From Raillietiella orientalis (taxonomy: Eukaryota), in assembly GCA_036172245.1 (NCBI GenBank), contig JAYWIR010000090.1, forward strand, positions 62,001-126,000: a stretch of 64,000 nt of DNA, given 5' to 3'. The stretch's first letter is position 1. Every line of letters starts with the position of its first letter. Made by a program: the position numbers and the translations under genes. Below are positions 1 through 64,000 of the stretch, in pieces. Below the pieces are notes generated by a model. That model did no database searches, was not told the origin of the DNA, and worked only from the letters and a program-made list of their open reading frames with translations.

Positions 1-897
1 TGTGATCCCTGGATAAGCCGTTCTTGACGAACAATCCCAGGGAGTGAACGTGCGTTACCGGCAACAACCGATATTCTGCACCGGGTGCAAGCAGTTCGGC
101 CACAGGGCCGGCGCTTGCCCAACGTGTCGTTGTTTCCGCTGCGGCAAAGTAGGACATCAAGTCCGAAACTGCCCGCAGCCGGAGGTGTGCTCCTTCTGCA
201 AGAAACACGGACATGCCAAATGGAGCTGTCCGGAGTTTGCAAACTGCAGAAGGATTCGAGGTCTCTCTCCCGTGAGAGAGAGAAACACCAAGGAGGCGGA
301 ACAGCCTCAGAAGGCAGGAAGGCCGAAGAAGGTGAAAGGAGCCGTCCCGGTATCAGAAGACGGCTTCATACAGGTAGGGAGAAAGGAAAGAGGAGGATGC
401 TCGTCAAGGAGCAAGAAACCCCTCTTATACTACAAGGTGAAGAGCAAGAAGGCGAGAAGATGGAGGTAGCGCAGGAAGGCGCGGAAGAAGAAATAGCCGA
501 AGCCACTCCGGTGTCGCAGGAGGCCCTGCAATCTACGGAGGAGTTGGCATCACTGGCTAATGAAGTCCTAGAGGTGCAGAGCGGTCCCCAGCAAGAGAAA
601 ATCTTGCAGAAGATCTGCAATGCACAGGAGAAGGTCAACCAGGTTGTGAAGGTCACCGAGCGCGAAAAGCTAGAGGAACAGCTTCTCGACGTAAAGGCGA
701 ACTTCTGCGCCAAGGTCCAGATAAAGACGCTATCTCGAAAACTGATCGCGCGGGCCGAACACTCGACGGAGGAGGCGGAAGTAACCGACCTCACCGGAAC
801 AGAGAGTGATGCCGGCAGCGAGAAGCCCACTGCTTCTTTATTGTCTGGAAGAGCACGCTCTCTCAGACAGAAAAAGCTCAGGAAGGCCAAGAAATAG
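1..897 (+). pseudogene. A1 ORF1 (gag-like, 3 zinc knuckles), partial and frameshifted
   Basis: ORF 44..469 has CTGCKQFGHRAGAC, CFRCGKVGHQVRNC, CSFCKKHGHAKWSC; the acidic C-terminus continues in frame 85..897. Confidence 0.85.
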
Positions 898-910
898 GTC
901 TTCCCCTTTT

Positions 911-3900
911 ATGGCCTCTTCCCTATCGACCGCCAGGAGGCTGAACATCGCCTCCTGGAATGTAAACGGTATGGTCGACCAGGGAAAAAGAAAAAGGATT
1001 GTGCGGACCATCGCAGAACAAGACATAGTGTGCCTGCAGGAGACCCACAAGATGGGTCTCGAGATTAGTCAGCAAATGGAACGGCGATTCAACGGGCAGA
1101 TTTTCGTCAGCGAGGGAGAACGGAACACGCAGGGCGTGGCGGTCCTAAAGAAGAACAACTTGGCCCCCACTATTCTGGAAGTGTTCTGTCCCCAACCCGG
1201 ACGAATCATCGGCGTGCGACTGGCCTGGTCCGCTACTGTTCACCTCATCCTGGTGAACGTGTACGGGCCGCACAGGCTAGAACATCGTTGTGTGGAGGCG
1301 CTGCATGCAGCACTCCGTGAAAAGGTTGCTTCCAAGGACGTCGTGATTGTTGCTGGCGATCTCAACATATTGGATGAGATCACTCACTCCGATGACGCCA
1401 GAGGAAGGACGGCGTATCGGCGGTTATCCGACGAGTTCGGACTGGTGTGGCGAACTGCAAGTCACAAGCCGATCGATCACGTCCTGCACAGCACCGAACT
1501 TGGGAATCGCATCCAGGGTTTTCGAGACATTATGACCACGGTGTCCGATCACCCCCTGGTGCGGTTTTCCCTAAGAACGGAGAATCCTCGGCGGAGGCAA
1601 GGCACCAGGGCGGCGCTCATCAGCATGCCCGCCTGGTTCGAAACCCATCCCGGACATCAGGCTGTCCTGGAGACGATTCTGAAGGCAACAACAATCCGAA
1701 GAGTCGCCGACTGGGACAGCCTGAAACACAGGAGACACCTGTTTGCAAACATGCAGTTCGGAGATTGGCGCTTGAGGCAGGAGGCGTACCGGGAGCTGAA
1801 CATCCAAGATTGCTCACTCTCAAAGTACTTCGATCAGTACGAGAGTCGGTACGTCTTCAAGAACATAAAAGGGGGAGTCGGTGTGCTGGAGAAGAGAAAT
1901 CTGGCAACAGATATCTTCTGCATCCAGTACGACGGTCAAAAGCGACAGTCGTCTGAGGACATCGTGAATGCCTTTCAAAGGCATTACACGAAACACTTTA
2001 GGCGACAACATCTCTGTCGCTTTAGTCAACAGGCCTTTCTGAGCTACCTCGAGAAGAGGACCGACGATCTCCAGCGGAACAGACTGGAGGAGGAATTCTC
2101 CGAAGACGAGGTGAAGACTGCGTTTGGTCAACTACGCAAGGACGTGGCAGCGGGCCCTGACAGCGTACCCATCACTCACTAGCAGAGGTACCTGCATGCC
2201 TACCTGCGTTTGTTCCACCAGTTGACCCTCTGCATCCGCGAAGAAGGAAGACTTCCACAGTCCTTCTACGAGAGTCGGATGAGATTGTTGCCAAAAGGAG
2301 GCGACCTCACGCAGGTCACTCAATGGAGGCCAATCTCGATCCTGAACTCCGATGCCAAGTGGTTGGCGAAGATCTGGTCCAACCGCTTAGGCAAGGTCAT
2401 GTCGAGGCTCATCTCTCCGGTCCAAACGTGTGCAGTCCCTGGACGTCACATGTCGGACAATGTCAAGTGTGCCCAAGCCACCGTCGGACTCAGCCGATAC
2501 GTCGGCGAGAATCTGGCGCTGGTGTTCACTGACATGGAGAAGGTTTTCGACTCCATCGACCATGGGATGCTGCTGAAGGTTCTGGAGAAGCTAGCCCTTC
2601 CGGAACACTTCAGCAACTTCGTGAGGGTGGTACTCTTGAACCAGTACTGCCGAATCAAAATAAACGGCCAGGAGACGGCAGCAATCCGGATGGAACGGGG
2701 AGTCCGGCAGGGCGATTCGCTAAGTCCGATGCTGTTCGTCATCTACATGGAGGCGTTGTCGTCCTTTATCGAGAAGAGCGGATGACTGCAAGGCATAGCA
2801 ATCGATGGCCAGCGTCTTACCCATCTGGCATACGCTGATGATCTACTCTTCTTTATCAAGGGAGATAGAAATCAACGGGCGTTTCTGGATGTGGTAGACC
2901 TGATGGATCAAGGCCTTGGTCTAAAGATCAACGCCCAGAAAAGCCAGCTCTTGCCCGTTGGAATCCTCGATCTCTCAGCTCAAACGAGGACAGGATTCCG
3001 GACGGTGAACAAGGCCAATTACCCGGGTGTCTACATTGGCGACGTCTCCGCGTCGAAGCTACTGTGGACCGAGATCCTAGGGAAAACGGCCAAGGAAGCA
3101 GCCAAGTACACCCAAACGGACCTTGGAATGAAGCGAAAGGCCAACATATGGAACGGAGTACTCCTTTTAAAAGTTCTTTCCGGGGCGGGCTTAGCGAGGA
3201 TGAACAAGTACACCACGAGGGAGTTCGACAAGCTGCAGAGAAAAACACTGTGGGGCCACTATCACCCAAGAGTTCGACTGAAACCCCTGTGTCGTCCCAG
3301 GGAAGAAGGCGGTTCCGGGATGAAGTCGCTTGCACACTCCATAGAAATCATAGATAAGCGAAAATCCTAGACATTACCACTCACTATGATGACTGGCCGT
3401 ATGCAACGCACAGGTCCTCCGCGTTGTTGTTGAACTACTCGAAAGGCCTGATGACTGCGCTGCTAGGCTGAGCAGGCGAATGGAAAAAAATCGACCCAAG
3501 CTGGACGAGGAAGCAACGGCTGGTGCGAAAGCACAAAATTAAGATCGTGCCGAGAAGTAGGGAACTCTGGCAGGACGAGTCTATCCTGGTGATCCCTTGG
3601 ATGCTTCCTGTCCTGCCGGACACGAGAAGCTGGATCCACTAGCGGTCCAGAGTTACCCTTCAACGAATCCAGGAGTGGTAACGAGGAGGGTACCTACATC
3701 ACACTCGTATACTCAAGTATATAGAGATGATGTTAGGAAGGTTTACCCACATGACTCGCGAAGTGTGGTTCAATCACAACGACTTTGCGTGGTCCAGGGT
3801 AACCAAAACAAACCTCCGAAGACTTATTCAAGAAGAACACAGAGATGTTAGTGCCCTCCAGGAAGCCGCCGATCGCTACGGGAATGACCGGATCAACCTG

Positions 3901-4428
3901 TTAGCGATTGGCACGACGCTCTGGAGGAGTGACCTTCCGCCGGGCACCTAGGATGACCTCCTGATGTTTTATCATGGAGGAATCCAGAGTGGGTCCTGAT
4001 TGCAGCACTACACCGGAAGAAGGGAAGATCAAGACTGCACAGCATGTGCAGACATCGACACGAGACTTCACGTCTTGACGTGTCCCACGTTGGTGCATGA
4101 CTGGCTGATCCTGAAAAGGATCATCGGACTCACCACCAGGTCCGTAATGGAGATCCTCGCCGGGATGTTTCAGGGGGATGGTAATGTTCCCTGTTACAAT
4201 CCCATGGTGAGGACGACCATCGCCCTCTTCATCACCGCCATACTTGTGCGGTGGTGGAAAATGAGGAAAGCCAGAAGAGCCGCACCACCGATGGAGATCC
4301 TACAAGGGCTCCTGAAGAGGGAAATCGGCATTAGAAACTGTGGGAAAATTCAAGCCTGGACGTACCGATTCATCCTGAAGAGGATGGAAGACGACGCCCG
4401 GGACGAAACAGCAGGAAACCCACCATGA
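911..4428 (+). pseudogene. A1 ORF2 (APE endonuclease-RT-CCHC), disrupted
   Basis: Pieces 806..2182, 2210..2785, 2891..3370, 4000..4428; C-terminal CTACADIDTRLHVLTC; multiple stops. Confidence 0.9.
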
Positions 4429-4568
4429 GTGCAGAACTTGTGAGAACCCAAGGACTTCATAGTGGTAAAAAAAGTGCTAATGGTATGGATGAGATTGTAG
4501 TGTGAATGTTTTTATAGAAAAATTTTAGAAAAATAAATTTACCCCACCCCTCGTGGGACTTGGGGAAA

Positions 4569-5931
4569 ACTGCCGAGTCGGCGATGGGGCGACTTCATGC
4601 AGCGTGCTTTTGCTCGTCGCGAGGCTGCTTTTTACGGCTTTCGTAGCCTTTGCAGAGGGGTCTGCGCTGCAGTGGGGCTGTCCGGAACTCGGAAGGGACA
4701 ACGGAACGGGGCAAGAAGTCTTCTCACTGTTGCGATCTTCCTGTTTTCCTACCTTTCCCTCCAGAGTGTTACGGAGATTTCCTGGTTCCTGGCTCGGAGA
4801 GGTGCCAGCGAGTTCGGCAGAGAGGAAAGGCACGGCACGCGTCAAACCCTCGTGCCCCTTTTTAATTGGCTTCCCCGCCGTGACTTTCCCCTTTCGGGGC
4901 GTTGCGGGCGGGGATGCTTTCTTTTCATCCGCGGATCGCTCCTGGTTTTTTGCGAGTTTTTGCGAACGACGTTTGTTATTTGTCGCTGCGGCTTATCGTG
5001 CAGTGGTCTCTTGAACCCGACGAATTTCCGCTGCGGCACCTTTTTTTCTTGCAAGTACCGGGCACTTTTTGATTTTGTGCCCCGAATCTTTGCAATAGCG
5101 GCATCTTGGAGAGGGGCACTCTTTACATTGGTGCCCATCCTTGCCGCACTGCTCGCACGCGCGATTCTGGCTTATGAACCACAGGTGAACGACCGTGCCG
5201 TTCACCTGGAGCTGCTCAGGCGCAACACGCCTGTTCGCGACGGTGATCCGCACGGAGGCTTGTCCAATGTGGACAGAGGGGAAATTCTTTAGAGGATTCG
5301 GCCTCCTCCACAGAGCGTGCACGGTGGCGAACTTCGCCAGCACACTTACGACATCGCGGTCGGAGATTTCCGGTTAGATGTCGGACAATTGAACGAAAAA
5401 AGAGTCGTCCATCACGGTAGGTAGGACTTCCTTGCCATTGATGGTCAACGGCGTACGGAGAAGGCGCTGCACAAGTGCTGCGTTCTTGCACCGAATCTTC
5501 GTATATTCCATCCTGCCAGCAGGCATTATGGCAAGGAGTTCCTCCTCGCGAACGCCGATCCGGACGAGCTCATCATTGAGCTCACGACCGAATCTCCCGT
5601 TAAGGGGCCCACTGACCTTATAACGGAGTGCAGGCATGTATCCTGATGACACATATGCCTGGAACTCCGCATCACAGGGTCCTGGTCTTTGGGAGGTAAC
5701 GGCGGCGTAACTCCTTACCGGGGGCGAGGAAACCATTACGGAAGATGCGGCTACTTCAAGGGCAGCTGAAGTGCATCCAGTGGCTTGCTCCTCCACACTA
5801 TTCTGTTTACTGGCCATGTTGCACTATGCTACTTGGCAGATTGCACAGGAACACACAAGTGCGAGCGAAAACGCAGGCACAAAGTTGCCCGATCGTTGGC
5901 GCGGATAGACGCGGAAACACGTCTGCACTGT
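4569..5931 (-). mobile_element. LINE family E, copy E1: 5' UTR and 5' part of ORF1, interrupted by A1
   Basis: Starts ACAGTGCAGACGTGTTTCC; ORF1 MASKQNSVEEQ (5817) with CEQCGKDGHQCKEC/CRYCKDSGHKIKKC; homologous to 35405-36767. Confidence 0.9.
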
Positions 5932-8900
5932 ACGAGCGCAGGAGATCGAACGCATCTACGGAGGGCGGCTGTGGTATCGGTGTGGAACATCGAGAAGTTG
6001 TGGTGTCGCCTACCTGCTTCGGCCCGCCATCGAGGCCGCCGCCCGTGGAGTTCGGTTCTACGATCACGGTCGTGTCGGCCAGCTGACTCTCAGCTGGTCC
6101 GACTCGATCGACTTGATCGTTACGAACGTTTACGCCCCGAGCGGAGCAAACCTGACCAACAGGAGGGCCACGAAAGAATATTTCCTTGCCCTCCATCGCG
6201 ACTGGTTGACCGAGGCAGGCGTGCGGAATGCCCATCTGGTTGCAGGCGATTTTAACGTTCGTCTGAAACCGGATGGGCCGAATCAGAAGCGTGACCTGGT
6301 CAAGGAGGTGTGCGCGGCGGTGCACACTTGTAATTTGTTGGCCAGTGTACCAGGGATGGAGGACAACATCGATCACGTGTTCCTTGACGAGCACCTGTGC
6401 ACTCGTGTGGGCAGGCGCTGCAAGTTGCCGTGCGAGTTGTCCGACCATCGACCAATCGTGATTGAAATCCATCCGCGTGACAGGGGCCCCCCTTGTCAGC
6501 GTGGCGTTTGCCAGGGGACTGGGTGAAGATCCCGGATGCGACGGAAAATCTCCGCACGTTTATACGGAGCTTTAGGATGCAGACACTTCAGGATTGGGAC
6601 CGCTTCAAACGGTCGGTCCAGGAGTTCTGCGACCAGTTCCCTCTGCACCGCCTACCTGCGGGATTTGGGGACGGGGTACGTATCTGGAGGCTCGCCGTTA
6701 CGTTAAGACCCCGGACATCCGCAGGCTGGCGGAATACAAAGCGGGAGCCGAGAGGCAAGTTTGGCAGTCAGGATCGGCCAGCTTGCTGGACGATCAGGGC
6801 CAGGAGCATTCGGCACCCGCTCAGATCCGCGGTCTGCTGCGGCGTTTTTACTTCTCCCTGTACGCAAGAACGCCTCCCGAGCGGGATTTCTCACGAATCC
6901 TGCTTCCGGAAGGCGCTTCTGCGATCGGGGAAGAGGAGAAAAAGTCCATCGACGAGTCTTTCACGATGGGCGAGATCATCTCTGCCATCGGAAAGCTCAA
7001 GAGGCGAAAGGCTCCAGGGGAGGACGGCCTGTCCGCGGAGTTTTATCAAACTTTCGCTGCTGAGCTAACCCCCCTGGTACATCAACTCACGTTGCTGATA
7101 CGCGAGACAGGTGACGTTCCCGCCTCGTTTCGTTCGGCAAAGGTGCGGCTTCTCCCTAAGGGAGGAGATCTGAGGAGCATGAGCAACTTTCGTTCCATCA
7201 CAATAGTGAATGCGGATGCCAAGTTGATAGCTAAGGTTTGAGCTGAGCGCTTGCGACGGGTTGCAAACGCCTTCATCAGCCCGGAACAGACGTATGCTGT
7301 TCCGGGGCAAAGCATGGAGGCGAACCTGTTCCGCGCTTCCACCTGGCTAGAGCTCCAACACGAAAGGGGCTTGATGCGCACCGGGAATTCCGGTGAGTCC
7401 GTCAGTCATGCGACGGATGGTCGGATGGGGGAGGGGGCACTTGCGGTCGCTGCCGACTTGCGTAAACCATTCGACAGCGTCGACCAGAAACTCCTGCTGG
7501 AGCTTTTGGAACGCTTGGGCTTCCCGGCCTCATTATTGGCCTATCTGCGCTCTAGCTGGCGCGATGCGCAAATCAATGTTACTTTCAGCGGGCATACTGT
7601 TCACGGCGTGCCGGTGCGACATGGAATCCAACAAGGAGACAGCCTGAGCCCCTTGCTCTTCAGTACCTACTTTGAGTTGGTACTGAAAGCGTACAGGGAA
7701 ACTCTGGCGCACCTGCCGCATGAATGCGCCGGAACGCCTGCGGTTTCAGCATATGCGGACGACCTCCTGCTACTGCTCCCTATGTCCACCCCGGCTTTGG
7801 CGGTCGAGAAGTTCTTCGACCTGCTGAATCGAGGAACCGGGCTTACGGTGAACATGGCTAAGTCGTCCGTGATGCCAGTTGGTGCGGAGTGGGTATGGCA
7901 GCAGGACTGTTTCCGTTTGGGGATCCCCACGGTGAGGTACTTCAAGTACCTTGGTGTGCCGTTGGGGGACTACTCCTTTGCGGAAGCGTGGTCCGGCTGC
8001 CTTCAAAAAGTAGAGACAGCTATCGGCCCGTTCCGAGGCGGCAGGTTTTTCCTGCCTGAACGGGCCACGGTTTGGAACATGTTCGCGGCCCCCCTCCTTC
8101 GCCCCCTACTTTTTGTGTGCCCTACCCCGTATCAAATTAGGACACGGACTAGGGGCCTTATACGGAAAGCCCTCTGGGGCAACCGGAGGCCTCGCGTCCG
8201 GCTCAAAGACTTGTGCGCTCCACGCAGGGACGGTGGACTTGGTCTCCTGACGTTGGAGCGCATGGAGCGACAGCTCCAATTCAGAAAACTTGCCCTTGTG
8301 GCAAAGTTTCGGACAGCACCCTGGTGTGCACCAGCAAGACTCCTTGCTCACAGGACAACCGGCTGCTTCGGATTGACTTCAATTTTGGTAGCCAACGAAC
8401 GCAGCCTGAACCATTGTGGTTATCAGCTGCGGGATTTGGTTGCTCTGATGAGAGACAACCCTGTGATCTCCTGCATCCCAGCGGACTGGACTACCTGGCT
8501 TCAGGAGTCCGTATCCGCATGGGCGAAGATCAATGGCACCAGCGATGAGGACTTCTCCTGCCTCCGCAGAGGGAGGCACGCCGGTCAGCCACTCCAGGAG
8601 ATCGTTTCCAACCCACGGAAACTTCTGTGGGCTTCCTTCACCTTCCTTGCCCCAGTGCTGCCCTTCCTCAGGGAAGTTCGGGACAGCCACCAACAGGCAT
8701 CGGGGGAAGTGTCCTGCCTCATCGGAGGCAGGAAAAAATCACTGAAGGCGTGGACGCCGAGGGAACTAGCGGACGAGGGAACTAGTACCCGGAGTGTCCC
8801 GCCGAACGGACTTTTACGCTGGGGCGCGCTGCTCGGTATACCTCCGGAGGAGGTGAAGTGGCCCCCAGCGTCATGGGACAACGTCACCCTTCCCCTGCAG

Positions 8901-9356
8901 TGGCAGGAGACGGCGTTGCTTCTGCTCCACTGGGGACTTTTAAGCAGAGCACGCCTGTCTCGCTGGACATCGGGGAATGTGGATGCTAGTTGTGCAGAGT
9001 GCGGGGAAAGGGAGACTTTCCCCCACTTGATTCTGGAGTGTGTTGCCCTTTACGAAATGTGGGACAGACTCTCGTCGATCCTCAACATTCCGGAGAGTGA
9101 CCCAAAAAATTTATCCAGACGCCTTCTGACGCGAGACGGCTTGCCAGCCTCCGGGAGCGTAGCAGTGCTCTGCTGCATACGCGGTATCCTGGAGAAGTGG
9201 ACCGCGTCTAGGAGAGGAAGGACCAGCCGGAATGCCATCCACTGGGCAGCGATCTCCTTGGAGAAAGCGTGCCGTTGGCGCCGACTTCAAAAACATTTAC
9301 CGGCACTTGTTCGCATCCGAAATCGGATGCAAAGGCCTGCTCACGGCGCACCGTGA
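5932..9356 (+). pseudogene. F1 ORF2 (APE-RT-CCHC), frameshifted
   Basis: ORFs 6113..6526, 6594..7241, 7251..9356; frameshifts near 6490 and 6680; TGA at 7239. Confidence 0.9.
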
Positions 9357-9620
9357 TCCCCTCCCTCCCTCCCGCTCCCTGAAAACATTGCCCTCCAGAC
9401 GTTTTTCTTTTTTTGTTTTGTTTTCTGTTTATTTTCCCCGTCCCGGCGCCAGTGAAGGACTTTATCGGCCTCCGGGTCGATAAAGACAAGTGCTATTGAA
9501 CTTCAATGAACGTCTGACGTCCGAAAAAGAAATTTTTTTTTTAACAACAAAGACCTTATTACAAAATTTTGTAATGTCAGAATTTCAGTAATAAATGCTC
9601 CGGCTTACCCGGGTGAAAAA
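5932..9620 (+). mobile_element. LINE family F, copy F1: ORF2 from within the APE domain to the 3' end
   Basis: GDFN, IDH, SDH, RT ORF 7251..9356 with YADD and CAECGERETFPHLILEC; ends AATAAATGCTCCGGCTTACCCGGGTGAAAAA. Confidence 0.93.
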
Positions 9621-9798
9621 CCTGAGCTGGGCTGGAGCGTTCTTGGCCCTGATGGTCCAGCAAGCAGGCCTAGGCTAACTGCCAGGCCTGCCTCTCCGCC
9701 ACAGCCTTGAATTCTGCCAAGCGACGGACGTCGGGATGACTGGAATAACGGCGGGCCGGAAGGTATGCCCGCTCGTGCTGACTCCCCCGCCGAATCCC
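9621..9798 (-). mobile_element. Short ORF2 fragment of a host LINE, trapped between the F1 and B1 insertion sites
   Basis: Minus strand reads GFG..YLPARRYSSHPDVRRLAEFKAVAERQAWQ..CLLDHQGQERSSPAQ, the APE-RT linker seen in all relatives. Confidence 0.85.
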
Positions 9799-9919
9799 TT
9801 GGCGAGAGGACGTGTTTTTCCTTCGCTCTTCAGTGAGTAGACAGGAAGCGGTTTTCTTAGTGTGTTTTTGTGTGGAACATCGTTGGTGTCCGATGGTAGC
9901 GTTTCCTGAGGACACCACG

Positions 9920-11640: not shown

Positions 11641-12113
11641 CACCTGGGCTCGCCAGTCGCCGTCGGATTCGCGCCGCCTGTTGGAACGTCAACGGGCTGC
11701 GCGACGACGGTAACAGGCGAGATACGGCCGACACCCTGCGTGAGCTCGACCTGGCCCTGCTGCAGGAGATCCACGTGATCACCGCGGCAGACGCCCAGGA
11801 GATCGAGACGATCGCGGGGGGTCGGTTGTATTGGCGGTGCGGCCTCCGCAACACCTGCGTGTTCGCGTTCTTCGTAAAGCCGGCCATCGACGCTGCCGTG
11901 AAGGGCGTGCGCTTCGATGACGACGGTCGGGTCGGTCAGCTGATTCTCAGCTGGTCCGACTCGATCGAATTGATCGTCACGAATGTGTACGCCCCAACCG
12001 GTCAAAAGGATACAGCGACCGCACCAGGCTGCTGGAATCCCTGAAGCGCGACTGGCTGGCGGACACGAACGTGCGGAAGGCTCACCTGATAGCGGGAGAT
12101 TTCAATCGAGTGC

Positions 12114-12125: not shown

Positions 12126-12185
12126 CTTCGCTCTCGTCTCCGTGCTTTCATCCGCTTCATCTTGGCGTCGTACATTTTGACGACG

Positions 12186-36767: not shown

Positions 36768-36906
36768 TTTCCCCAAGTCCCACAAGGGGTAGGATAAATT
36801 TATTTTTCGAAAATTTTTCTACAAAAGCATTCACACTACAGTCTCATTCTTACAATTGGCACTGTCTTTACCACTCTGAAGTCCATGGGTTCACAAGTTC
36901 TGCACT

Positions 36907-40413: not shown

Positions 40414-40426
40414 AAAAGGGAAAGAC

Positions 40427-42265: not shown

Positions 42266-42380
42266 CTCCTTGGCGCTTCTTTTGTTGTTTCGTCGGGAAA
42301 CCTCCCCTCTCCGGGCACACACTAGCACAATTAACTGATTAAGTTGTCGTGCGCACAATACTTTGAGCCGCGAAGCAAGT

Positions 42381-51100: not shown

Positions 51101-51220
51101 GATGCCCGGACGTCCGGTGTCTGGCGGAGTACAAGGCCAGGGCCGAGCGCCAGGTTCGGCAGTCTGGAGCGGCTTGTCTGCTCGATGACGCTGGCCAGGA
51201 ATGCTCGGCTGCAGCCGAAG
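48139..51220 (+). mobile_element. LINE family I (5' UTR, ORF1, APE), antisense in H ORF1; interrupted by J
   Basis: GGACGTGTT at 48143; degenerate ORF1 about 48222..50164 with CRYCKQLGHSIKEC; TGATG 50162-50166; APE ORF 50149..50967. Confidence 0.9.
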
Positions 51221-53390: not shown

Positions 53391-53482
53391 GGCTAGAGCG
53401 GACGTGTTTCCTCGGTGCTACTCGTGCCGGGAACCGTCCCTAGGTGTAGGCTTCGTGTGTGGTGGTGGTCGATCAGGCTGCA

Positions 53483-55201
53483 ATGCCTGACGCGACCACC
53501 AGTACGTGTCAGGGGGCGGTGGCAACGTCGCCTCCTGAAGAAATGGAGTGCCAGGTGGCGGCGGCAACGTCGCCTCTAGAGAAGGTGGAGTGCCAGAGGG
53601 CGGCGGCAACGTCGCCTTCAGTGGCGAAGGAGGTGGGGGCGTCCGCCCCCACAAGACCGGTCCCCGCTGCAGCGCGGGCGTGGAGCGCCGTCGTGTCGGC
53701 GCCATCGCCTGCAGCCGCGGCGGAATTATCTGCCTATGTGGAAGAGGGGTATAACCCATCACTATTCTACAAGGTAGGAAATTTGTATTCTGCTGAGAGT
53801 GCGCGCGCCTTTTCGAAGGGAATGCGCGCTCTCGATGTTAAAGAGGAGGAGCTCTGCGCTATGACCATTCGTAGCGGGTGTCAGTACGTTGAGGTCATCT
53901 GCAAACATGCAGAGCTGGCCCAACGACTGCTTAAAACCCCCGTGGTAATGGGGACACGCAGGCTCCTTCCCGTTACGGCGGACCACAGTATAATGGTCCA
54001 CCTTTTAGGAGTTACCGCGCGGATGCGGAAAGAACAGTTACGCGCCGCGTTGGGAAAAGAAGGCACGGTCCATGCAGTATAGACCAAGCCTAGTCCTTTC
54101 GAGGACTATACCACAGTTCAGTGCGGCCTCACGGCTGCCCGTGTAACCGTTCGGGAGGGCTCTACCCTTCTCCACAAACTGGTGGTCGGCGGAGAAAGCG
54201 TCGACCTCTGGTACGTGAGGAAGCCCAAATACTGTGGCTTCTGCAACACGTCGGGACACCTCAAAAGGAGGTGCCCCAACGTACGGTGCCTGGTATGCGG
54301 GACAATGGGCCACACGAAGGTAGTGTGTCCACAATCCGCTGTGCGTGTGGTTTCCGCGAGGAACCTAAAAAAACGCGCGCGGCTGCTACAGAAAAAACTG
54401 GCGGCGAAGGCTGCCGCTCAAGCTGTGCCACCCACTCCCGTGGTCCAGGCCTCAGCCGACACCCCGACAACGAATGCCGAAAAGATTGACAAAAGCGGTC
54501 AGGTGTTGGAATGGCAAGAAGTCACAGCGAAAAAGAAAAAAAATTCGAAGAAAAAACGACGAATCGAAAAAAAGCTCGCCTACCAAAATAGAAAACAGCA
54601 GGTTAGCGAGACTTTAAAAGAATGCAGCGTCGTCGTGGAATGCGTCCCCGCAGAACGCCGCAAGGTAGAAATCGCTGCTACCGACGAGCAACCCACTGTT
54701 GAAAATGTCAACAGCGTGGGGAGCGAACCGGCGGAAGCGTCCGTCATCGAGACCGTGATCGATGACGCCGCTTTCGAGCGTGCGGCGGAGGAGCTGGCTG
54801 CATCGCTGCAGCCAGACCCCTCCAAGGCTGGCAAAAAGGCAGTGAGGCGTCCGGCCTCCACCGAAGAGTCGGTAACTTCCGACCCCGAAGCGCAGGCCGG
54901 AAACCAAGTTTCCATCTCCGCGGCACCCCGCCGGAAGGCTGGAAGGAAGTCCAGCAAACCCCGGAAAGCCCCTCTCCAGGTCCAAGGCGTGGAGATCACT
55001 TCCGACTGCGAGGGTGCCATGAGCGTGGGAGAATCCCGGGAATCGTCACCCGAGAGACCACCACGCACTGACACGGAGGAGATGGAGGGGGTTGAAGCCG
55101 GAAAGGTACCCAAGGTGCCTGAGGAGGCTGAAACCCTAATGGTCATCTCACCCGCCTCTTCGGAGGCGGGTTCCCCCACACCGTCATCTTCCCGGCAGTA
55201 A
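53483..55201 (+). pseudogene. F2 ORF1 (2 zinc knuckles), single in-frame TAG at 54080
   Basis: ORFs 53459..54082 and 54182..55201 are in the same frame; CGFCNTSGHLKRRC, CLVCGTMGHTKVVC. Confidence 0.88.
53506..53631 (+). repeat. 42-bp x3 coding tandem repeat in F ORF1
   Basis: CQGAVATSPPEEME / CQVAAATSPLEKVE / CQRAAATSPSVAKE; core GGCAACGTCGCCT. Confidence 0.85.
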
Positions 55202-58200
55202 TGCCGGGAATCTCCTCCCGCCGTCGTCTGCGCATCGCCGTTTGGAACGTGAACGGCATGACAGACGCCGACAGGAGACGAGACATGGCCGCCATTCTAG
55301 GATCGTTTGACCTTGTGCTGCTGCAGGAGATCCATGTGATTTCTGCAGAACAAGCGCAGGAGATCGAACGCATCTACGGAGGGCGGCTGTGGTATTGGTG
55401 TGGAACATCGAGAAGTTGTGGTGTCGCCTACCTGCTTCGGCCCGCCATCGAGGCCGCCGCCCGTGGAGTTCGGTTCTACGATCACGGTCGTGTCGGCCAG
55501 CTGACTCTCAGCTGGTCCGACTCGATCGACTTGATCGTTACGAACGTTTACGCCCCGAGCGGAGCAAACCTGACCAACAGGAGGGCCACGAAAGAATATT
55601 TCCTTGCCCTCCATCGCGACTGGTTGACCGAGGCAGGCGTGCGGAATGCCCATCTGGTTGCAGGCGATTTTAACGTTCGTCTGAAACCGGATGGGCCGAA
55701 TCAGAAGCGTGACCTGGTCAAGGAGGTGTGCGCGGCGGTGCACACTTGTAATTTGTTGGCCAGTGTACCAGGGATGGAGGACAACATCGATCACGTGTTC
55801 CTTGACGAGCACCTGTGCACTCGTGTGGGCAGGCGCTGCAAGTTGCCGTGCGAGTTGTCCGACCATCGACCAATCGTGATTGAAATCCATCCGCGTGACA
55901 GGGGCCCCCCTTGTCAGCGTGGCGTTTGCCAGGGGACTGGGTGAAGATCCCGGATGCGACGGAAAATCTCCGCACGTTTATACGGAGCTTTAGGATGCAG
56001 ACACTTCAGGATTGGGACCGCTTCAAACGGTCGGTCCAGGAGTTCTGCGACCAGTTCCCTCTGCACCGCCTACCTGCGGGATTTGGGGACGGGGTACGTA
56101 TCTGGAGGCTCGCCGTTACGTTAAGACCCCGGACATCCGCAGGCTGGCGGAATACAAAGCGGGAGCCGAGAGGCAAGTTTGGCAGTCAGGATCGGCCAGC
56201 TTGCTGGACGATCAGGGCCAGGAGCATTCGGCACCCGCTCAGATCCGCGGTCTGCTGCGGCGTTTTTACTTCTCCCTGTACGCAAGAACGCCTCCCGAGC
56301 GGGATTTCTCACGAATCCTGCTTCCGGAAGGCGCTTCTGCGATCGGGGAAGAGGAGAAAAAGTCCATCGACGAGTCTTTCACGATGGGCGAGATCATCTC
56401 TGCCATCGGAAAGCTCAAGAGGCGAAAGGCTCCAGGGGAGGACGGCCTGTCCGCGGAGTTTTATCAAACTTTCGCTGCTGAGCTAACCCCCCTGGTACAT
56501 CAACTCACGTTGCTGATACGCGAGACAGGTGACGTTCCCGCCTCGTTTCGTTCGGCAAAGGTGCGGCTTCTCCCTAAGGGAGGAGATCTGAGGAGCATGA
56601 GCAACTTTCGTTCCATCACAATAGTGAATGCGGATGCCAAGTTGATAGCTAAGGTTTGAGCTGAGCGCTTGCGACGGGTTGCAAACGCCTTCATCAGCCC
56701 GGAACAGACGTATGCTGTTCCGGGGCAAAGCATGGAGGCGAACCTGTTCCGCGCTTCCACCTGGCTAGAGCTCCAACACGAAAGGGGCTTGATGCGCACC
56801 GGGAATTCCGGTGAGTCCGTCAGTCATGCGACGGATGTTCGGATGGGGGAGGGGGCACTTGCGGTCGCTGCCGACTTGCGTAAACCATTCGACAGCGTCG
56901 ACCAGAAACTCCTGCTGGAGCTTTTGGAACGCTTGGGCTTCCCGGCCTCATTATTGGCCTATCTGCGCTCTAGCTGGCGCGATGCGCAAATCAATGTTAC
57001 TTTCAGCGGGCATACTGTTCACGGCGTGCCGGTGCGACATGGAATCCAACAAGGAGACAGCCTGAGCCCCTTGCTCTTCAGTACCTACTTTGAGTTGGTA
57101 CTGAAAGCGTACAGGGAAACTCTGGCGCACCTGCCGCATGAATGCGCCGGAACGCCTGCGGTTTCAGCATATGCGGACGACCTCCTGCTACTGCTCCCTA
57201 TGTCCACCCCGGCTTTGGCGGTCGAGAAGTTCTTCGACCTGCTGAATCGAGGAACCGGGCTTACGGTGAACATGGCTAAGTCGTCCGTGATGCCAGTTGG
57301 TGCGGAGTGGGTATGGCAGCAGGACTGTTTCCGTTTGGGGATCCCCACGGTGAGGTACTTCAAGTACCTTGGTGTGCCGTTGGGGGACTACTCCTTTGCG
57401 GAAGCGTGGTCCGGCTGCCTTCAAAAAGTAGAGACAGCTATCGGCCCGTTCCGAGGCGGCAGGTTTTTCCTGCCTGAACGGGCCACGGTTTGGAACATGT
57501 TCGCGGCCCCCCTCCTTCGCCCCCTACTTTTTGTGTGCCCTACCCCGTATCAAATTAGGACACGGACTAGGGGCCTTATACGGAAAGCCCTCTGGGGCAA
57601 CCGGAGGCCTCGCGTCCGGCTCAAAGACTTGTGCGCTCCACGCAGGGACGGTGGACTTGGTCTCCTGACGTTGGAGCGCATGGAGCGACAGCTCCAATTC
57701 AGAAAACTTGCCCTTGTGGCAAAGTTTCGGACAGCACCCTGGTGTGCACCAGCAAGACTCCTTGCTCACAGGACAACCGGCTGCTTCGGATTGACTTCAA
57801 TTTTGGTAGCCAACGAACGCAGCCTGAACCATTGTGGTTATCAGCTGCGGGATTTGGTTGCTCTGATGAGAGACAACCCTGTGATCTCCTGCATCCCAGC
57901 GGACTGGACTACCTGGCTTCAGGAGTCCGTATCCGCATGGGCGAAGATCAATGGCACCAGCGATGAGGACTTCTCCTGCCTCCGCAGAGGGAGGCACGCC
58001 GGTCAGCCACTCCAGGAGATCGTTTCCAACCCACGGAAACTTCTGTGGGCTTCCTTCACCTTCCTTGCCCCAGTGCTGCCCTTCCTCAGGGAAGTTCGGG
58101 ACAGCCACCAACAGGCATCGTGGGAAGTGTCCTGCCTCATCGGAGGCAGGAAAAAATCACTGAAGGCGTGGACGCCGAGGGAACTAGCGGACGAGGGAAC

Positions 58201-58774
58201 TAGTACCCGGAGTGTCCCGCCGAACGGACTTTTACGCTGGGGCGCGCTGCTCGGTATACCTCCGGAGGAGGTGAAGTGGCCCCCAGCGTCATGGGACAAC
58301 GTCACCCTTCCCCTGCAGTGGCAGGAGACGGCGTTGCTTCTGCTCCACTGGGGACTTTTAAGCAGAGCACGCCTGTCTCGCTGGACATCGGGGAATGTGG
58401 ATGCTAGTTGTGCAGAGTGCGGGGAAAGGGAGACTTTCCCCCACTTGATTCTGGAGTGTGTTGCCCTTTACGAAATGTGGGACAGACTCTCGTCGATCCT
58501 CAACATTCCGGAGAGTGACCCAAAAAATTTATCCAGACGCCTTCTGACGCGAGACGGCTTGCCAGCCTCCGGGAGCGTAGCAGTGCTCTGCTGCATACGC
58601 GGTATCCTGGAGAAGTGGACCGCGTCTAGGAGAGGAAGGACCAGCCGGAATGCCATCCACTGGGCAGCGATCTCCTTGGAGAAAGCGTGCCGTTGGCGCC
58701 GACTTCAAAAACATTTACCGGCACTTGTTCGCATCCGAAATCGGATGCAAAGGCCTGCTCACGGCGCACCGTGA
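55201..58774 (+). pseudogene. F2 ORF2 (APE-RT-CCHC), same lesions as F1
   Basis: ORFs 55201..55944, 56012..56659, 56669..58774. Confidence 0.92.
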
Positions 58775-59038
58775 TCCCCTCCCTCCCTCCCGCTCCCTGA
58801 AAACATTGCCCTCCAGACGTTTTTCTTTTTTTGTTTTGTTTTCTGTTTATTTTCCCCGTCCCGGCGCCAGTGAAGGACTTTATCGGCCTCCGGGTCGATA
58901 AAGACAAGTGCTATTGAACTTCAATGAACGTCTGACGTCCGAAAAAGAAATTTTTTTTTTAACAACAAAGACCTTATTACAAAATTTTGTAATGTCAGAA
59001 TTTCAGTAATAAATGCTCCGGCTTACCCGGGTGAAAAA

Positions 59039-59216
59039 CCTGAGCTGGGCTGGAGCGTTCTTGGCCCTGATGGTCCAGCAAGCAGGCCTAGGCTAACTGC
59101 CAGGCCTGCCTCTCCGCCACAGCCTTGAATTCTGCCAAGCGACGGACGTCGGGATGACTGGAATAACGGCGGGCCGGAAGGTATGCCCGCTCGTGCTGAC
59201 TCCCCCGCCGAATCCC
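59039..59216 (-). mobile_element. Host ORF2 fragment (duplicate of 9621-9798; possibly the upstream continuation of J)
   Basis: Matches 9621-9798 at offset 49,418. Confidence 0.85.
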
Positions 59217-61524
59217 TTGGCGAGAGGACGTGTTTTTCCTTCGCTCTTCAGTGAGTAGACAGGAAGCGGTTTTCTTAGTGTGTTTTTGTGTGGAACATCG
59301 TTGGTGTCCGATGGTAGCGTTTCCTGAGGACACCACGATGGATGTAGGTGTGGGGGAGGCTTGCCCACCCTCACAGCCTACAGAATCAGGGACGTCCGAC
59401 CCGGAATCGCCCTCGCCGCCTAAAGCGAGGAGCTAAATCGCCATGGTGGCCGCGCCGAGCGCGGAAACCATGGCCGAGATGGCGGCCTACCAAGCACATG
59501 GGAACAAGTCCAGCTTGTTGTACCAGGTAGGCCCCTTATTTGATGGGAAAACGGCACGCGCGTTTTCGAAAGCGCTGCAAAACGCCGGAGCAAAAGAACA
59601 AGATCTTGACTGCCTGTTCGTTCTCAGCGGAGGTCAGCGAGTCGAGGTGGTGTGCAAGGAGATCACCTTGGCTCAGACTCTGATCACCAACCCGTTGAAC
59701 GTCGACGGCCGAAAGATCTTGCCGGTGACGATAGACCGCTCCGTGGTGGTCCATCTCACTGGAATAACGAGCCGTATGACTCGCTCTGCGGTAGCACAAG
59801 AACTGCAGAAGTTCGGCGAGGTGCACGCGCTGTGGCCTAAGCCAACAATCTTTGAAGGCTTCAATAGCCATTTCGGAGGCCAGGCTGCAGCGCGGGTAAC
59901 CGTGAGTAAGGATTGTGGGCTTCCCCACAAGCTGGAGGTCGCGCAAGAGAGCGTGGACCTCTGATACGCGGGAAAGCCCCGGTATTGCGGCTACTGCGAT
60001 ACCGTAGGACACCTTCGCAAGAGGTGTCCTAACATCCAATGCCACATGTGCGGGGAGAAGGGCCACGTTCGACGTGTGTGCCCAAAACGCCCCACCCCGG
60101 TTCCTCCTGCCGCGAAAAAGGCGCAGAAAAACGCACACTAAAGGTCACAAGACCTAAGGCGGACGCTGGCCGGCTGAAGCTGCCAGATCCTCAACCTCCA
60201 AAAGAAAAGACGGAGGATAAACCTTCCCAAGAGGCGGAAGGTGATGAGGGCTGGCAACTTGTAGCAGCCAGAAAAGAGAGAAAAGCTTCTTTAAAGGAGA
60301 AGAAAGAGAAGCCGGCCGGTAAGGCAAAAAAACCCGGGCCGCGTTCGAAAACCATACGCGAGTGCACGGTGGCACTGGAACGTATCGTCGTTCCGGAAGG
60401 TGCCACCCGGGGCGACGAGCCTCCCCTCGCCGTTTCCGTAGCGCCCGAAGTTCGCGACGGCGAACCCTCTGTGCAAACAGAGGGTGATCCGCGCGACGCG
60501 CCGGTCGACACCGGAGTCGCCGCGTTCGCAAAGGCGGCGGAGGAGCTCGCGGCCACGCTGGCGGAGCGTGAGAACCCGTCACGCAAGACCGTGCGAAGGC
60601 CGGCTCCCGCGAAAAAGGCCCCCACAGGTGAGTCGGACCTGGGAGCCGGAAGTGCATCCTCCTCCTCGGAGGCACCCCCCAGGAAGTCGGGACGCAAGTC
60701 CCAGAAACCCAGGAGGCGCCTCCCCTCCACCAGCGAGGAGGAGAAGCAGGAAGCTAGCGGTAGCGTGGGAATCCCGGAGGGGGAACTCCCACGCTCGGAA
60801 GCCGTCGAGCCGGCCACCCCCATGGAGAAGGGTGAGCAGGGGGGCGAAGTCCTCCCTGCAGTCGCCGAGCCTGAACAGCCCGCCCCCATGGAGGAGGGCC
60901 AACAGGTATGCGCGACCCCACCTGAGGGTGACCCGCTCGACGCGCCGTTACCCATGGAGGAGGGGGACCAGGTGCACGCAGCGCCTGACCCTCCTCCTCC
61001 ACCTAGCGTCACGCCCCAACAGGTGGCGGACGCCGCATCGCCATGTTCCCAGGAATAACACCTGGGCTCGCCAGTCGCCGTCGGATTCGCGCCGCCTGTT
61101 GGAACGTCAACGGGCTGCGCGACGACGGTAACAGGCGAGATACGGCCGACACCCTGCGTGAGCTCGACCTGGCCCTGCTGCAGGAGATCCACGTGATCAC
61201 CGCGGCAGACGCCCAGGAGATCGAGACGATCGCGGGGGGTCGGTTGTATTGGCGGTGCGGCCTCCGCAACACCTGCGTGTTCGCGTTCTTCGTAAAGCCG
61301 GCCATCGACGCTGCCGTGAAGGGCGTGCGCTTCGATGACGACGGTCGGGTCGGTCAGCTGATTCTCAGCTGGTCCGACTCGATCGAATTGATCGTCACGA
61401 ATGTGTACGCCCCAACCGGTCAAAAGGATACAGCGACCGCACCAGGCTGCTGGAATCCCTGAAGCGCGACTGGCTGGCGGACACGAACGTGCGGAAGGCT
61501 CACCTGATAGCGGGAGATTTCAAT
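59217..61524 (+). mobile_element. B1' (duplicate of the B1 5' segment)
   Basis: ORFs 59443..59964, 60039..61058, 61043..61462 equal B1 ORFs +49,418, with the same stop and frameshift. Confidence 0.93.
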
Positions 61525-64000
61525 CGCGTGCGGACGTGTTTTTCTTCGCTCTCGTCTCCGTGCTTTCATCCGCTTCATCTTGGCGTCGTACATTTTGACG
61601 ACGATGTCGACCCAACTTGAAGCTACTGAAGTAGGAATAACAGCATCCGGATCTGCAATCGCGGAACCGACGGCCGCCTCCACTTCGTCTTTCTCGCCAA
61701 TGGAGAGGAGTTTTGCTGACGTTGCTGCCACAGCAGCCGTCAAAGGGAAACCACTCGACGAGTCGGAGTTGCGGGCATACCTAGCCCAAGGCTATAGACC
61801 TGCTCTCCGATATAAGGTGAGTGGTTTTCTTTCTGCGCGCGACGGGAATCAGTTCAACGATGAACTGACCCGTGTTGGCGTGCGGGAGGAAGGACCTTCT
61901 CGCCATTATGCCCGTAAAAGACATGGGCTATTTCAAGGTGCGTTGCAAAGACGCTGCACTTGTGCAACGCTTGCTGCGCACCCCGTTGTCGATCCGTGGC
62001 CAGAAGGTCTTCCCGGCCGCCATGGACGACTCATTTGTGGTGGAGATTTTCGACATCGAGTCGGAAATCTCCGATACTGATATTCGGAACGCGTTGGCGA
62101 ACTTCGCCACGGTCCATGCGCTGTGGAGGGTGCGTAGCAACCTCAAGGACTTCCCGTCCATACACAGCGGAGTCGCTGGAGTCCGGCTTACAATGCCGGA
62201 CCGCCGTCTGCTGCCCACCAAACTACAGGTGAAAGACACGGTCGTTCACCTGTGGTTCGTGGGCAAAGCAAAAACGTGCAAGCAATGCGGGAAGGAGGGG
62301 CATTGTTTGGATAAATGCCCCTCTGGAAAATGCCGTTATTGCAAACTATCCGGGCACCAATTGAAAAATTGCCCGGATCTTTTGCGAAAAAAGGCAGCCG
62401 CAGAGCTCCATCCTAGAAAACAAAGCGCGGATAAAAAGAAAAAATCTGCGAAAAACCTGGACACCCCACGGCAGAAATTCGGTAAAAACGCGAGGCGGAA
62501 TGTCGCCCCAAAGCAGCAGGAAACCTCGCACGCGAAGCCCTGCGCGCCCCCTCTCGCGGCAGGGGAGCCGCAAAAGAAAGGGTGCGGGGAATCCGGGGCA
62601 ATGGTAAGTCCCCCTAGGCGCAATAGCTGTCCTTCGCAAGCACGCCCGGCTCTTTCGGAGTTCGTGCAACCGGCGGGGACGTCAATGGACAACGGCGGTA
62701 AGGACACTTCCAGTACCGTGAGATCCATTCCTTCACCTCCTGCAGTGGCTGAGAAGCCCAAATCGAGTAAGAAGGGTTGTGCAGTGTCGACTTCGAAAGT
62801 CGGCAAAAAAAAATCCGCGTCGCGATCCAACACCGCGAAAGTGGAGAAAAATCTCACGCCGTCGCAATCGGAGAGCAAGCTCTCGACTGGCGCGGATGCC
62901 ATGCCTACGAAGGGATTAAAATCCCTTCCGAAGGCAGCGTCCATGACGAGCGTGTCGAAGCCATCCAAAGTGCTCCCGTCCAAAGACGCGGATGGCTTCA
63001 AAGATGGTAATGGAGCACAATCTCCATTTACGGCGCCACGCGAAGTGAGGAACCGTAATGAAGTAAAGAAGACTTCAGCAAAGGTCCCTCGTGCAACTGC
63101 GCGTGAGCACGCTGAAAACGCGCGCGCCGGGAAAGCAGCCGTCACCAAAAGCGATGCTCTGGAGACGGAAAAAGGCAACAGGACAGCTGTCAATCCAGCA
63201 GAACCTGTCACTACTTCGCGGAAGGCCGAAACCCGATCGAACATGCGCCGGTCGGACTCCGAAATGGATGCCGTTCCGATCACCGAGACGAGGACAACTC
63301 GTTCGAAAGCGTGTGCGCGCCGATCAAAAGTAGGCAGCCAGGCAACTCTAGCCGCGAAGCCACGCGAAGTCTCCACGAAACCCGACGGGGATAAGCCTGG
63401 CGTGGAGGTATTACATGCATGCAGCACGACAGAGGACGGTGGCGACCGTCCCCTCCAGCCAGTCGTGCTGCTCGCCGTCTGCTCGCCGGATAAAGCGAGC
63501 AAAAAGCTGCCACCTTCCCACCAGTAATGCGGGGAATCGCGTCTTCTCGTCGTCTGTCCGTAACGTGTTGGAACGTGAACGGACTGCAGAACGACGAGAA
63601 GAGGCGATTAGTAGCCAACGCCCTGCGCCCCTTAGACCTTGCGCTGCTGCAGGAGATTCACGTAATCTCCGACGATCAGGCGGCCGAAATCGAGGAGCGC
63701 GCAGGCGGAACGCTACATTGGCGGTGCGGCGGCGCACACACGTGCGGCGTCGCGTTCCTCGTAAGAGGAAAAATGGCGGAAGCGGTGCGTAGTGTTCGTT
63801 TCGATGACAACGGACGGATAGGCCAGCTTGTCATCAAGTGGTCCGAGTCCATCGATCTCGTCGTTACGAAAGTCTACGCGCCGAGTGGCTCTCGCTACCT
63901 CGAAGAAAGAGTAGCTTTCTTTGGTGAGGTGCAGAGCCAGTGGCTCAACAACTCCGGCTTCCAAGTGGCGCACCTCGTCGCTGGGGACTTCAACGTCCGC
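61525..64000 (+). mobile_element. LINE family C, copy C3 (5' part; runs off the window)
   Basis: Follows ATTTCAAT; ORF1 61872..63527 (551 aa open); TAATG 63525-63529; APE to GDFN. Confidence 0.93.

Follow-up and report, generated by a model that had tools for sequence, protein, structure and literature searches.

Nested LINE lineages at recurrent exact sites in one another's reading frames in a 64-kb window of Raillietiella orientalis

Nested and target-specific LINEs described so far

Some long interspersed nuclear elements (LINEs) pile up in copies of themselves, and others aim at a single exact nucleotide within a sequence present in many copies. Both habits bear on the DNA studied here, a 64,000-nucleotide stretch of contig JAYWIR010000090.1 of the Raillietiella orientalis assembly GCA_036172245.1 (positions 62,001 to 126,000 of the forward strand; the whole stretch is called the window), in which LINEs of at least seven lineages lie inside one another. 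Zepp of 'Chlorella' (Coccomyxa C-169) and ZeppL-1 of Chlamydomonas and its relatives are L1-type LINEs that insert into their own copies and form nested, gene-free clusters (PMC8226300, PMC3446292), and for Zepp-like clusters in green algae the published descriptions give one or two families in each species (PMC8226300, PMC3446292, 10.1101/2022.06.16.496473, PMC11005252). The window resembles Zepp and ZeppL in that insertion into existing copies has produced nested clusters, including one case (G in B2/K) of nesting within the same 3' module, a term used here for the C-terminal third of open reading frame 2 (ORF2) together with the 3' untranslated region (3'UTR). Unlike them, it combines at least seven lineages with five exact addresses that recur, with reciprocal hits and with an antisense orientation. 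The Zepp and ZeppL descriptions, in the portions drawn on here, give no fixed nucleotide address, orientation rule or multi-lineage partition, and the window's elements were compared with them by description only.

Target-specific LINEs with an apurinic/apyrimidinic endonuclease-like (APE) domain use one exact nucleotide of a multicopy sequence, and the targets named in the part of the source drawn on include 'transposons' (PMC4640811). The window's elements are like those of the Tx1 clade (Tx1L in Tx1D) and the R1 clade (R1, TRAS, SART) in combining APE with a reverse transcriptase (RT) and in inserting at an exact nucleotide of a multicopy target. The Tx1- and R1-type targets are ribosomal, small nuclear and transfer RNA genes, microsatellites, telomeric repeats and a DNA transposon, Tx1D, which is targeted by Tx1L, whereas the targets in the window are the coding sequences of sibling LINEs. 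Also unlike the Tx1- and R1-type elements, several lineages of the window share out one and the same gene between them, and their hits are reciprocal.

Two further systems are similar in part. The ingi LINE and RIME, its short interspersed nuclear element, share one fixed insertion site within the coding region of RHS genes, and many members of that gene family have thereby become pseudogenes, according to the excerpts used (PMC7563717). In that system one retroelement lineage targets a family of host genes, whereas in the window the targets are the LINEs' own open reading frames (ORFs) and many lineages each have a site. Cnl1 of Cryptococcus is an element without long terminal repeats (non-LTR) found in subtelomeric arrays of its own copies, and it is like the window's elements in piling up in element copies (10.1101/2021.08.11.455996). 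It is, in the portion of the report used, a single family with a G+C-rich preference that also inserts into genes, its target duplications are often absent or 1-12 bp long, and no fixed codon address is described there. A search of full-text literature found no published description of several LINE lineages that share out exact addresses in one another's ORFs; its scope did not extend to Repbase reports or to the first papers on Zepp, so priority is not assured.

Target-specific LINEs are natural models for programmable, homology-independent gene insertion, and target reading by APE-type elements is known for few of them (R1, TRAS, SART). A set of closely related elements with different exact targets, together with one natural chimera, makes the site-choosing part of the ORF2 protein (ORF2p) testable by domain swaps. 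The window also bears on transposon ecology: many lineages can coexist without hitting genes, each copy being both parasite and landing pad, and because each insertion disables a competitor, such a community should have its own rise-and-fall dynamics. Mutual LINE targeting may also explain how LINE-only chromosome regions such as the Zepp-type clusters are built.

Insertions at exact addresses in sibling reading frames

The window is LINE sequence throughout. All of its bases could be assigned to 23 LINE segments, with two long frames serving as rulers for ORF2 and one for ORF1 and with exact borders mapped separately, and no non-LINE DNA was found in it. With an APE endonuclease and an RT, the elements are APE-type non-LTR LINEs: Exo_endo_phos was found in 10 of the 38 ORFs searched with Pfam (E<=0.01), RVT_1 likewise in 10 of the 38, and one frame, at 20106-22124, holds both domains in the ORF2 order of endonuclease, then reverse transcriptase. 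They belong to at least seven related lineages, namely A; C, E and I, which form one clade; and B/K/G, D/H and F/J, which form another.

Thirteen separable insertion events can be read in the window when junctions in a duplicated block (99.4% identity) are counted once and a tandem pair of C elements is counted as one event. These are A into E1 and A into E2; E into F and E into D/Y; F into Z and B1 into Z; C into B1 and D/Y into B1; B2/K into D/Y; G into B2/K; H into E2; I into H; and J into I. All 13 sit inside LINEs, and 11 fall on five recurrent exact addresses, one in ORF1 of E and four in ORF2, at codons ~20, ~241, ~265 and ~325. The E ORF1 address was used twice by A, codon ~20 twice by E, codon ~241 by D and H, codon ~265 by B1, B2/K and G, and codon ~325 by F and J. 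When 13 events were placed at random on 5,600 nt in 2 orientations, 200,000 times over, the number sharing an address (+/-3 nt) never exceeded 6 of the 13 and reached four or more in 165 trials; sharing of addresses by chance is excluded.

The junction columns were read from a nucleotide alignment of all ORF2 N-terminal copies (a caret marks the junction). At codon ~20 the E 5' ends begin between AGCG and CAGGAGATCGAAC in F and between AGCG and CCAGAGATCGAAC in Y, which is the same column. At codon ~241, H sits after ..GAGCTCGA^ (...CTCGA^) in E2 and D after ..AATCTCCA^ (...CTCCA^) in B1. The 3' junctions at codon ~265 follow GGATTTGGGG^ in B2, where G is inserted, and GAATTTGGGG^ in Y, at the 3' end of K, and the 5' junctions of B1 and B2 share one column in Z and D. 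At codon ~325 the junction is ..GCTCAGG^ in Z for the F insert and ..GCCGAAG^ in I for the J insert, and the A address reads ..CCGACTCGGCAG^ in both E copies. Two events have addresses of their own: C stands after GATTTCAAT (GDFN, codon ~128) of B1, and I begins inside ORF1 of H.

The insert lies antisense to its host in 12 of the 13 events, C alone being in sense, which points to a priming nick on the host sense strand. Targeting is reciprocal between lineages, with B2/K in D/Y and D/Y in B1, and with E2 in D/Y and H in E2, and it also occurs within a lineage, G in B2/K being a case in which insert and host have the same 3' module. Among the 13 events, no address was used by two 3' modules and no 3' module was found at two addresses.

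Much of this had been proposed by the first-pass annotation of the sequence, which held that every insertion lies within another LINE and that diverged inserts hit the same nucleotide of diverged hosts; the 13 events in a wholly LINE window bear out the first, and the five addresses, with two to three independent hits each, bear out the second. Its broader claim, that several lineages each have their own exact site in the coding sequence of relatives and break a relative with each insertion, survives all tests made within the window. Five of the seven junction coordinates that it gave are exact (9799 for the 5' end of B1, and 24269, 9620, 43864 and 51221 for the 3' ends of D, F, H and J), but the E 5' ends lie at 5938/5939 and 35398/35399 and not at 5931 and 35405, a difference of 6-7 nt.

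The annotation had also taken the targets to be conserved motifs. Measured by nucleotide conservation, this stands for GDFN, which alone is high (90th percentile), but not for the four other ORF2 addresses (43rd-60th percentile), and on these percentiles the idea of conserved motifs as addresses is right only in part. Since the addresses are mostly not specially conserved, each lineage may be able to hit only some of the others.

Shared junctions could also go back to a small number of old composite insertions whose copies, made by segmental or tandem duplication, have since drifted apart; site specificity would then be unneeded. Large duplications are present (the 99.4% block, and the C tandem at 96%), ORF1 of C2 and C1 has diverged neutrally, with a ratio of nonsynonymous to synonymous change (dN/dS) of 0.94, and the A and E parts of the two A/E composites are nearly equal in identity. 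At the E junction, however, the two loci are 94.3% identical over A and 93.9% over E (1276/1359) but 84.4% over the host (624/739), and the step falls exactly on the boundary, where there is a 4-nt microhomology (AGCG). At the B junctions the hosts Z and D are 63% identical while the inserts B1 and B2 are 81% identical. The E address is empty in F', which is 99.4% identical to F and reads uninterrupted through codon ~20, and B2/K and A2 have target duplications of their own.

The dN/dS values also oppose duplication. The hosts of address pairs are 56-84% identical (they differ by 16-44%), the inserts differ by 6-26%, and the pairs have dN/dS of 0.17-0.47 overall. Codon counts on nucleotide alignments, used for close pairs, gave 0.24 (0.14-0.37) for F/Y, 0.26 and 0.29 for ORF1 and APE of B2/B1, 0.35 (0.25-0.50) for ORF2 of A1/A2 and 0.47 (0.26-0.98) for ORF1 of E2/E1, while neutral controls in the same window gave 0.94 (C2/C1 ORF1) and 0.96 (C2/C' ORF1). 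Codons from high-scoring segment pairs, used for distant pairs only, gave 0.27 for B2/Y, 0.17 for B1/E2, 0.31 for the C-terminal part of D/H, 0.24 for F/J and 0.25 for G/K; in three short host pairs the synonymous sites are saturated (proportions of differing sites pS 0.75-0.93 and pN 0.24-0.35). Because an insertion into ORF2 kills the host copy, divergence under purifying selection implies that the host pairs diverged, as working elements, before they were hit. The cross-lineage pairs that share an address are independent insertions and not one old junction copied, and duplication is refuted as their source; as an account of the window as a whole it is very improbable. The first-pass annotation had itself raised the scenario of one junction multiplied by duplication, and this holds for the 99.4% block only, not for the cross-lineage pairs, by both dN/dS and the step at the E junction.

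Two further cases were considered separately. ORF2 of C2/C1 has a dN/dS of 0.60 (0.42-0.89), with ORF1 at the neutral value given above, and the pair (12107-23934) may be a DNA-level tandem duplication or unequal crossing-over, or else a second hit on the site regenerated by the 8-bp duplication. For the two A/E composites, an E element carrying A that moved as a unit, with its A and E parts equally diverged, is less likely than two separate A hits, which are favoured by the dN/dS of A1/A2 ORF2.

Another explanation would be targeting of a region, for example centromeric or heterochromatic chromatin, combined with a loose nick motif, so that the repeated sites are hot spots of a common endonuclease preference. 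It would suit a window that is all LINE and the clustering of Zepp and ZeppL once per chromosome, as stated in the sections used (PMC3446292, PMC8226300), and it would also suit junctions at two further positions in related contigs, described below. It does not fit the junctions, which coincide to the nucleotide in hosts as diverged as those above, nor the pairing of one address with each 3' module and one module with each address, nor the sequences at the five addresses, which have no common motif. Region targeting is improbable on this evidence.

The element termini bear on whether the junctions are real. The 5' ends of full-length copies share the motif ..GGACGTGTTT.. followed by T/C-rich bases in all lineages except A (9799-9825, 12107-12130, 27186-27210, 48139-48160, 53393-53415 and, on the minus strand, 5915-5938). 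All 3' ends carry AATAAA about 20 nt before the end, a short G+C hairpin and 4-6 A-rich bases, without long poly(A); Zepp, by contrast, reportedly has poly(A) tails (Higashiyama 1997). Judged by the polyadenylation signals usual in algae, an AATAAA in this place speaks against a chlorophyte host. The A lineage has a differing 5' end, and the hairpin before its tail is longer and G-rich. Full elements are ~5.6-5.9 kb long (F' 5,646 nt, A2 5,615 nt, C1 5,916 nt), and an insert either is full length and has the conserved 5' end or is 5'-truncated (G, J). Target duplications of 8-14 bp accompany the complete inserts whose two flanks both lie in the window; they measure 12-14 nt for A2, 11 nt with 1 mismatch for B2/K and 8 nt for C, and G is trailed by a diverged copy of its target duplication (~11 nt). 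Nested near-identical repeats assemble poorly, and the 99.4% duplicate lies 49.4 kb away, so that collapsed or mis-joined repeats could in principle have made false junctions. But the junctions bear all the marks of retrotransposition (intact tails with a 3' hairpin, conserved 5' termini and 8-14 nt duplications), and they recur between elements only 75-81% identical, which assemblers would not confuse; an assembly artefact is barely credible.

The termini also gave two side observations. The 5' motif GGACGTGTTT is kept across clades that are only ~57-70% identical in ORF2, and its role may be that of an internal promoter or of a second-strand signal. All clade-II lineages have a T-run, a pyrimidine-rich stretch of ~60 nt right after the stop codon (conserved context GTGATCCC; e.g. 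9380-9430, 24400-24470, 30040-30100, 34460-34520 and 44030-44090), and the remainder of the 3'UTR beyond it varies between modules.

Altogether the window was probably built wholly by target-primed reverse transcription of at least seven APE-type LINE lineages, each at one exact nucleotide in an ORF of its own or another lineage. In the mechanism proposed, ORF2p would recognise an address in the ORF of a relative and nick the host sense strand (the antisense strand in the case of C). Priming of complementary DNA would take place where the 3'UTR meets the short A tail and would involve no base-pairing with the target; the tails have no complementarity to the primer ends ..GGGG, ..TCGA and ..CAGG. 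The other strand would be cut 8-14 nt upstream, after which synthesis would either complete a full-length copy with the conserved 5' end or stop early, as in G and J. The lineages would persist because every new copy is a fresh target for others, and host genes would be spared.

Which part of the element carries the address

Trees were compared for different parts of the elements. The 3' module tree groups F with J, D with H and K with G, each with support of 100, which is a grouping by address. The RT tree instead joins F with D (97-98) and then H (100), with J and K outside, and the APE tree joins F' with Y (100) and then H (85). The RT data reject the module tree (delta log-likelihood 72, approximately unbiased test p 6e-5) and the module data reject the RT tree (delta log-likelihood 170, p 2e-14). 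F and D are 77-91% identical in RT, yet their addresses differ. On these trees the elements are mosaics in which the address tracks the 3' module and not APE or RT. A 'family' must be defined by its 3' module, because F and D are alike in RT and unlike in address.

Sliding identity places the mosaic change-over ~1,350-1,650 nt after codon 263. In D, the window's longest open frame (861 aa, minus strand, 24482-27067) has human LINE-1 ORF2p as its best match among solved structures (E 1.8e-36, query 17-368 on residues 403-739), ahead of R2 and R2-like chains (E 2.6e-14 to 2.9e-9), and the change-over lies shortly past the stretch that aligns to residues 403-739, presumably around the thumb/wrist boundary of ORF2p, going by domain maps. 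The frame of D is open across the change-over, which indicates that the mosaic was a working element.

Complementarity between 3'UTR and target was not found beyond background, with scores of 6-11 in all 91 pairs and cognate pairs no higher, and the 3' tails are alike across lineages. Within the reach of this complementarity test, RNA-guided targeting is ruled out, and the result points to a protein read-out and not an RNA read-out. From these sequence comparisons we infer that the address would be read by the ORF2 protein, through a part linked to the 3' module. The C-terminal protein part is a candidate address selector, a proposal that we hold with a little less than even confidence.

A competing account accepts mutual site-specific targeting as real and lets the APE endonuclease set the address, as in R1Bm, TRAS1 and SART1, so that the match between module and address is a by-product of a small sample. 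This is the established mechanism of APE-type target-specific LINEs, as given in the parts of the sources used (PMC1919474, PMC2868851), and F and Y do differ in APE (186/244 residues are identical and 58 differ, partly clustered in two loops). On the other side, D/Y and H share an address at 56% identity in APE protein, while F and D/Y have different addresses at 76%, and the APE tree joins F' with Y at full support. Taken together, an address set by APE is somewhat unlikely, though it is the strongest of the alternatives weighed here.

A fuller version of the modular reading is that the LINEs form a closed network, landing only at exact ORF codons of each other or themselves, with the site set by an exchangeable C-terminal ORF2/3'UTR module, and that a natural module swap between the F/D and J lineages moved the address of an APE-RT core, otherwise left unchanged, from codon ~241 to codon ~325. 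This version is speculative, and we consider it rather doubtful as a whole. What is new here, the suggestion that the address travels with the 3' module, offers a testable lead. If the modular reading is true, it would give the first case among APE-type LINEs of a target choice that is modular and can be separated from the endonuclease. If the closed-network reading is true, these transposons would owe their persistence to preying on each other instead of on the genome of the host.

Several observations weigh against these readings. The evidence base is one 64-kb window with 13 events, and insertions elsewhere in the genome are possible. The link between module and address consists of three pairs and one natural swap, and the address may instead be encoded in APE, in which F and Y differ at 24% of residues. 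The addresses of C and I were each seen in one event. When the antisense bias is counted by address it is 6/7, which is not significant alone. The 5' end of F' (53382-53406) adjoins J within the RT motif KAFD (~codon 537) rather than at codon ~325; supposing that J and Z' belong to one host, ~640 nt of that host may have been lost at the F' insertion, and otherwise two hosts may be juxtaposed. Finally, in contigs of a related organism or strain (run X1), two records have an H-like hairpin 3' end joined antisense to positions that are not addresses, matching 61247 (~codon 36 of a B-like APE) and 54636 (an F-like ORF1). They may reflect further lineages with further addresses or a looser specificity, and hairpins at the 85% likeness of these contigs cannot be tied to a lineage.

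The same contigs contain 12% of the sampled words of the window, and 396 records could be aligned, 14 of them at least 99% alike. On 43864-63863 all 30 bins are covered, mostly at 85-95% likeness, so the guild of LINEs is not private to the Raillietiella orientalis assembly. Most of the joints in these contigs are switches between homologous copies. One contig, with ..AATCTCCAGGACTGGGAC.., resembles an intact B1-type codon ~241 site, which is a hint only.

Layout of the nest

The segments run in the order A1(+) E1(-) F(+) Z(-) B1(+)[C1 C2]B1(+) D(-) B2(+) G(-) K(+) Y(-) E2(+)[A2(-)]E2(+) H(-) I(+) J(-) F'(+) Z'(-) B1'(+) C'(+). The window begins with A1 (1..4569, plus strand), a divergent APE+RT LINE whose 5' part lies beyond the window and whose 3' end (AATAAA, hairpin, GGGGAAAA) adjoins ORF1 of E1 in antisense; it is 94.3% identical to A2 (4298/4559). 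E1 (4570..5938, minus) comprises the 5' untranslated region and part of ORF1 of an E element, with its full-length 5' end (GCAGACGTGTTTCC) at 5938, where it adjoins F at ORF2 codon ~20. F (5939..9620, plus) thus has E1 at its 5' side and runs from codon ~20 to a 3' end (AATAAA, hairpin, GAAAAA) that adjoins Z at codon ~325. Z (9621..9798, minus) is an old host remnant of ORF2 codons ~325 to ~265, cut by both F and B1, and it is an outlier lineage like J, 57-67% identical to all others.

The first part of B1 (9799..12106, plus) holds the 5' end (TTGGCGAGAGGACGTGTTTTTC), ORF1 and ORF2 as far as GDFN (codon ~128). There it is interrupted by C1 (12107..18022, plus), a full-length C in sense that ends in the 8-nt duplication ATTTCAAT, and by C2 (18023..23934, plus), a tandem second full-length C that is 96% identical to C1 and ends in ATTTCAAT as well. 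The second part of B1 (23935..24268, plus) covers ORF2 codons ~129-241 and ends at the D insertion. D (24269..27185, minus) is element D/Y from its 3' end to ORF2 codon ~265 and contains the 861-aa frame, and Y (34666..35398, minus), 84.4% identical to F, is its continuation over codons ~268 to ~20. D and Y are two halves of one element split by B2/K, as judged from both halves being nearest to F (82% and 84%) and from the duplication in the flanks. B2 (27186..29915, plus) is the front part of element B2/K, with the 5' end, ORF1 and ORF2 as far as codon ~268, and this element lies antisense in D/Y at address 265. It is split by G (29916..31731, minus), a 5'-truncated element reaching from the RT motif YADD to the 3' end and lying antisense in B2/K, also at address 265, and it continues as K (31732..34665, plus), which resumes with CGGATTTTGAAAGGGGG, a diverged target duplication, and runs to the 3' end.

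E2 is broken twice, by A2 and then by H. Its first part (35399..36766, plus) reaches from the full-length 5' end into ORF1 as far as the A address, A2 (36767..42381, minus) is a complete A element lying antisense in E2 ORF1, and the second part (42382..43863, plus) holds the remaining ORF1 and ORF2 codons 1-241 and ends at the H insertion. H (43864..48138, minus) comprises its 3' end, the whole of ORF2 and part of an ORF1 cut by I, and lies antisense in E2 at address 241. I (48139..51220, plus) runs from its 5' end (GCACGGACGTGTTC; boundary +/-3 nt) through ORF1 to ORF2 codon ~325, where J (51221..53392, minus), from the 3' end back to KAFD (codon ~537), is inserted antisense. Next is F' (53393..59038, plus), a full-length F copy with address ~20 empty at 55358/55359, followed by segmental copies of Z (Z', 59039..59216, minus), of the first part of B1 (B1', 59217..61524, plus) and of C1 (C', 61525..64000, plus; 99.4%, continuing past the window). 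Compared with the layout in the first-pass annotation, which otherwise stands, B2 and K are now one element, D and Y are one element, the F-Z-B1-C block is duplicated and C1 and C2 are a tandem pair.

The F-Z-B1-C block (5939-14581) is repeated 49,420 nt downstream at 55359-64000 with 99.4% identity. In self-comparison the match extends over 5922-14581 versus 55342-64000, reaching past the window end, and since the alignment starts at 55342 it spans the empty address in F'. The other large matches are 1-6670 versus 41324-34666, inverted, at 93%, and 12099-18022 versus 18015-23934, in tandem, at 96%, with many additional matches at 71-82%. This 8.7-kb repeated block may belong to a much larger tandem or segmental repeat unit, and the E/A pair stands at the left border of one copy. 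The G+C content of the window is 53-63%.

Relatives were also sought outside the window. In metagenomes, an RT alignment used as the search pattern picked out 600 stretches, none of which was confirmed, and a scan with the 3'-end DNA motif gave 33 loci, which are taken as chance matches because none of the 33 encodes anything resembling the window's 203 ORFs. The closest named database relatives are plant L1-like proteins with at most 29% identity, and none of the protein searches returned a named Tx1 reference sequence. A broader protein search gave 19 matches, all at 30% identity or less, and a nearer search gave 33, one of them close (P0020, 66%, on a 2,870-nt contig). The A lineage (A1, A2) is a far more distant LINE clade, with 22-35% protein identity to the other lineages. 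Two zinc-finger-like matches were seen under their Pfam cut-offs: zf-RVT-like at 15-23 bits (cut-off 27.5) in four of nine C-terminal fragments (D, F, G and C1), and zf-CCHC at 17.8-19.3 bits (cut-off 20.8) in two ORF1 pieces.

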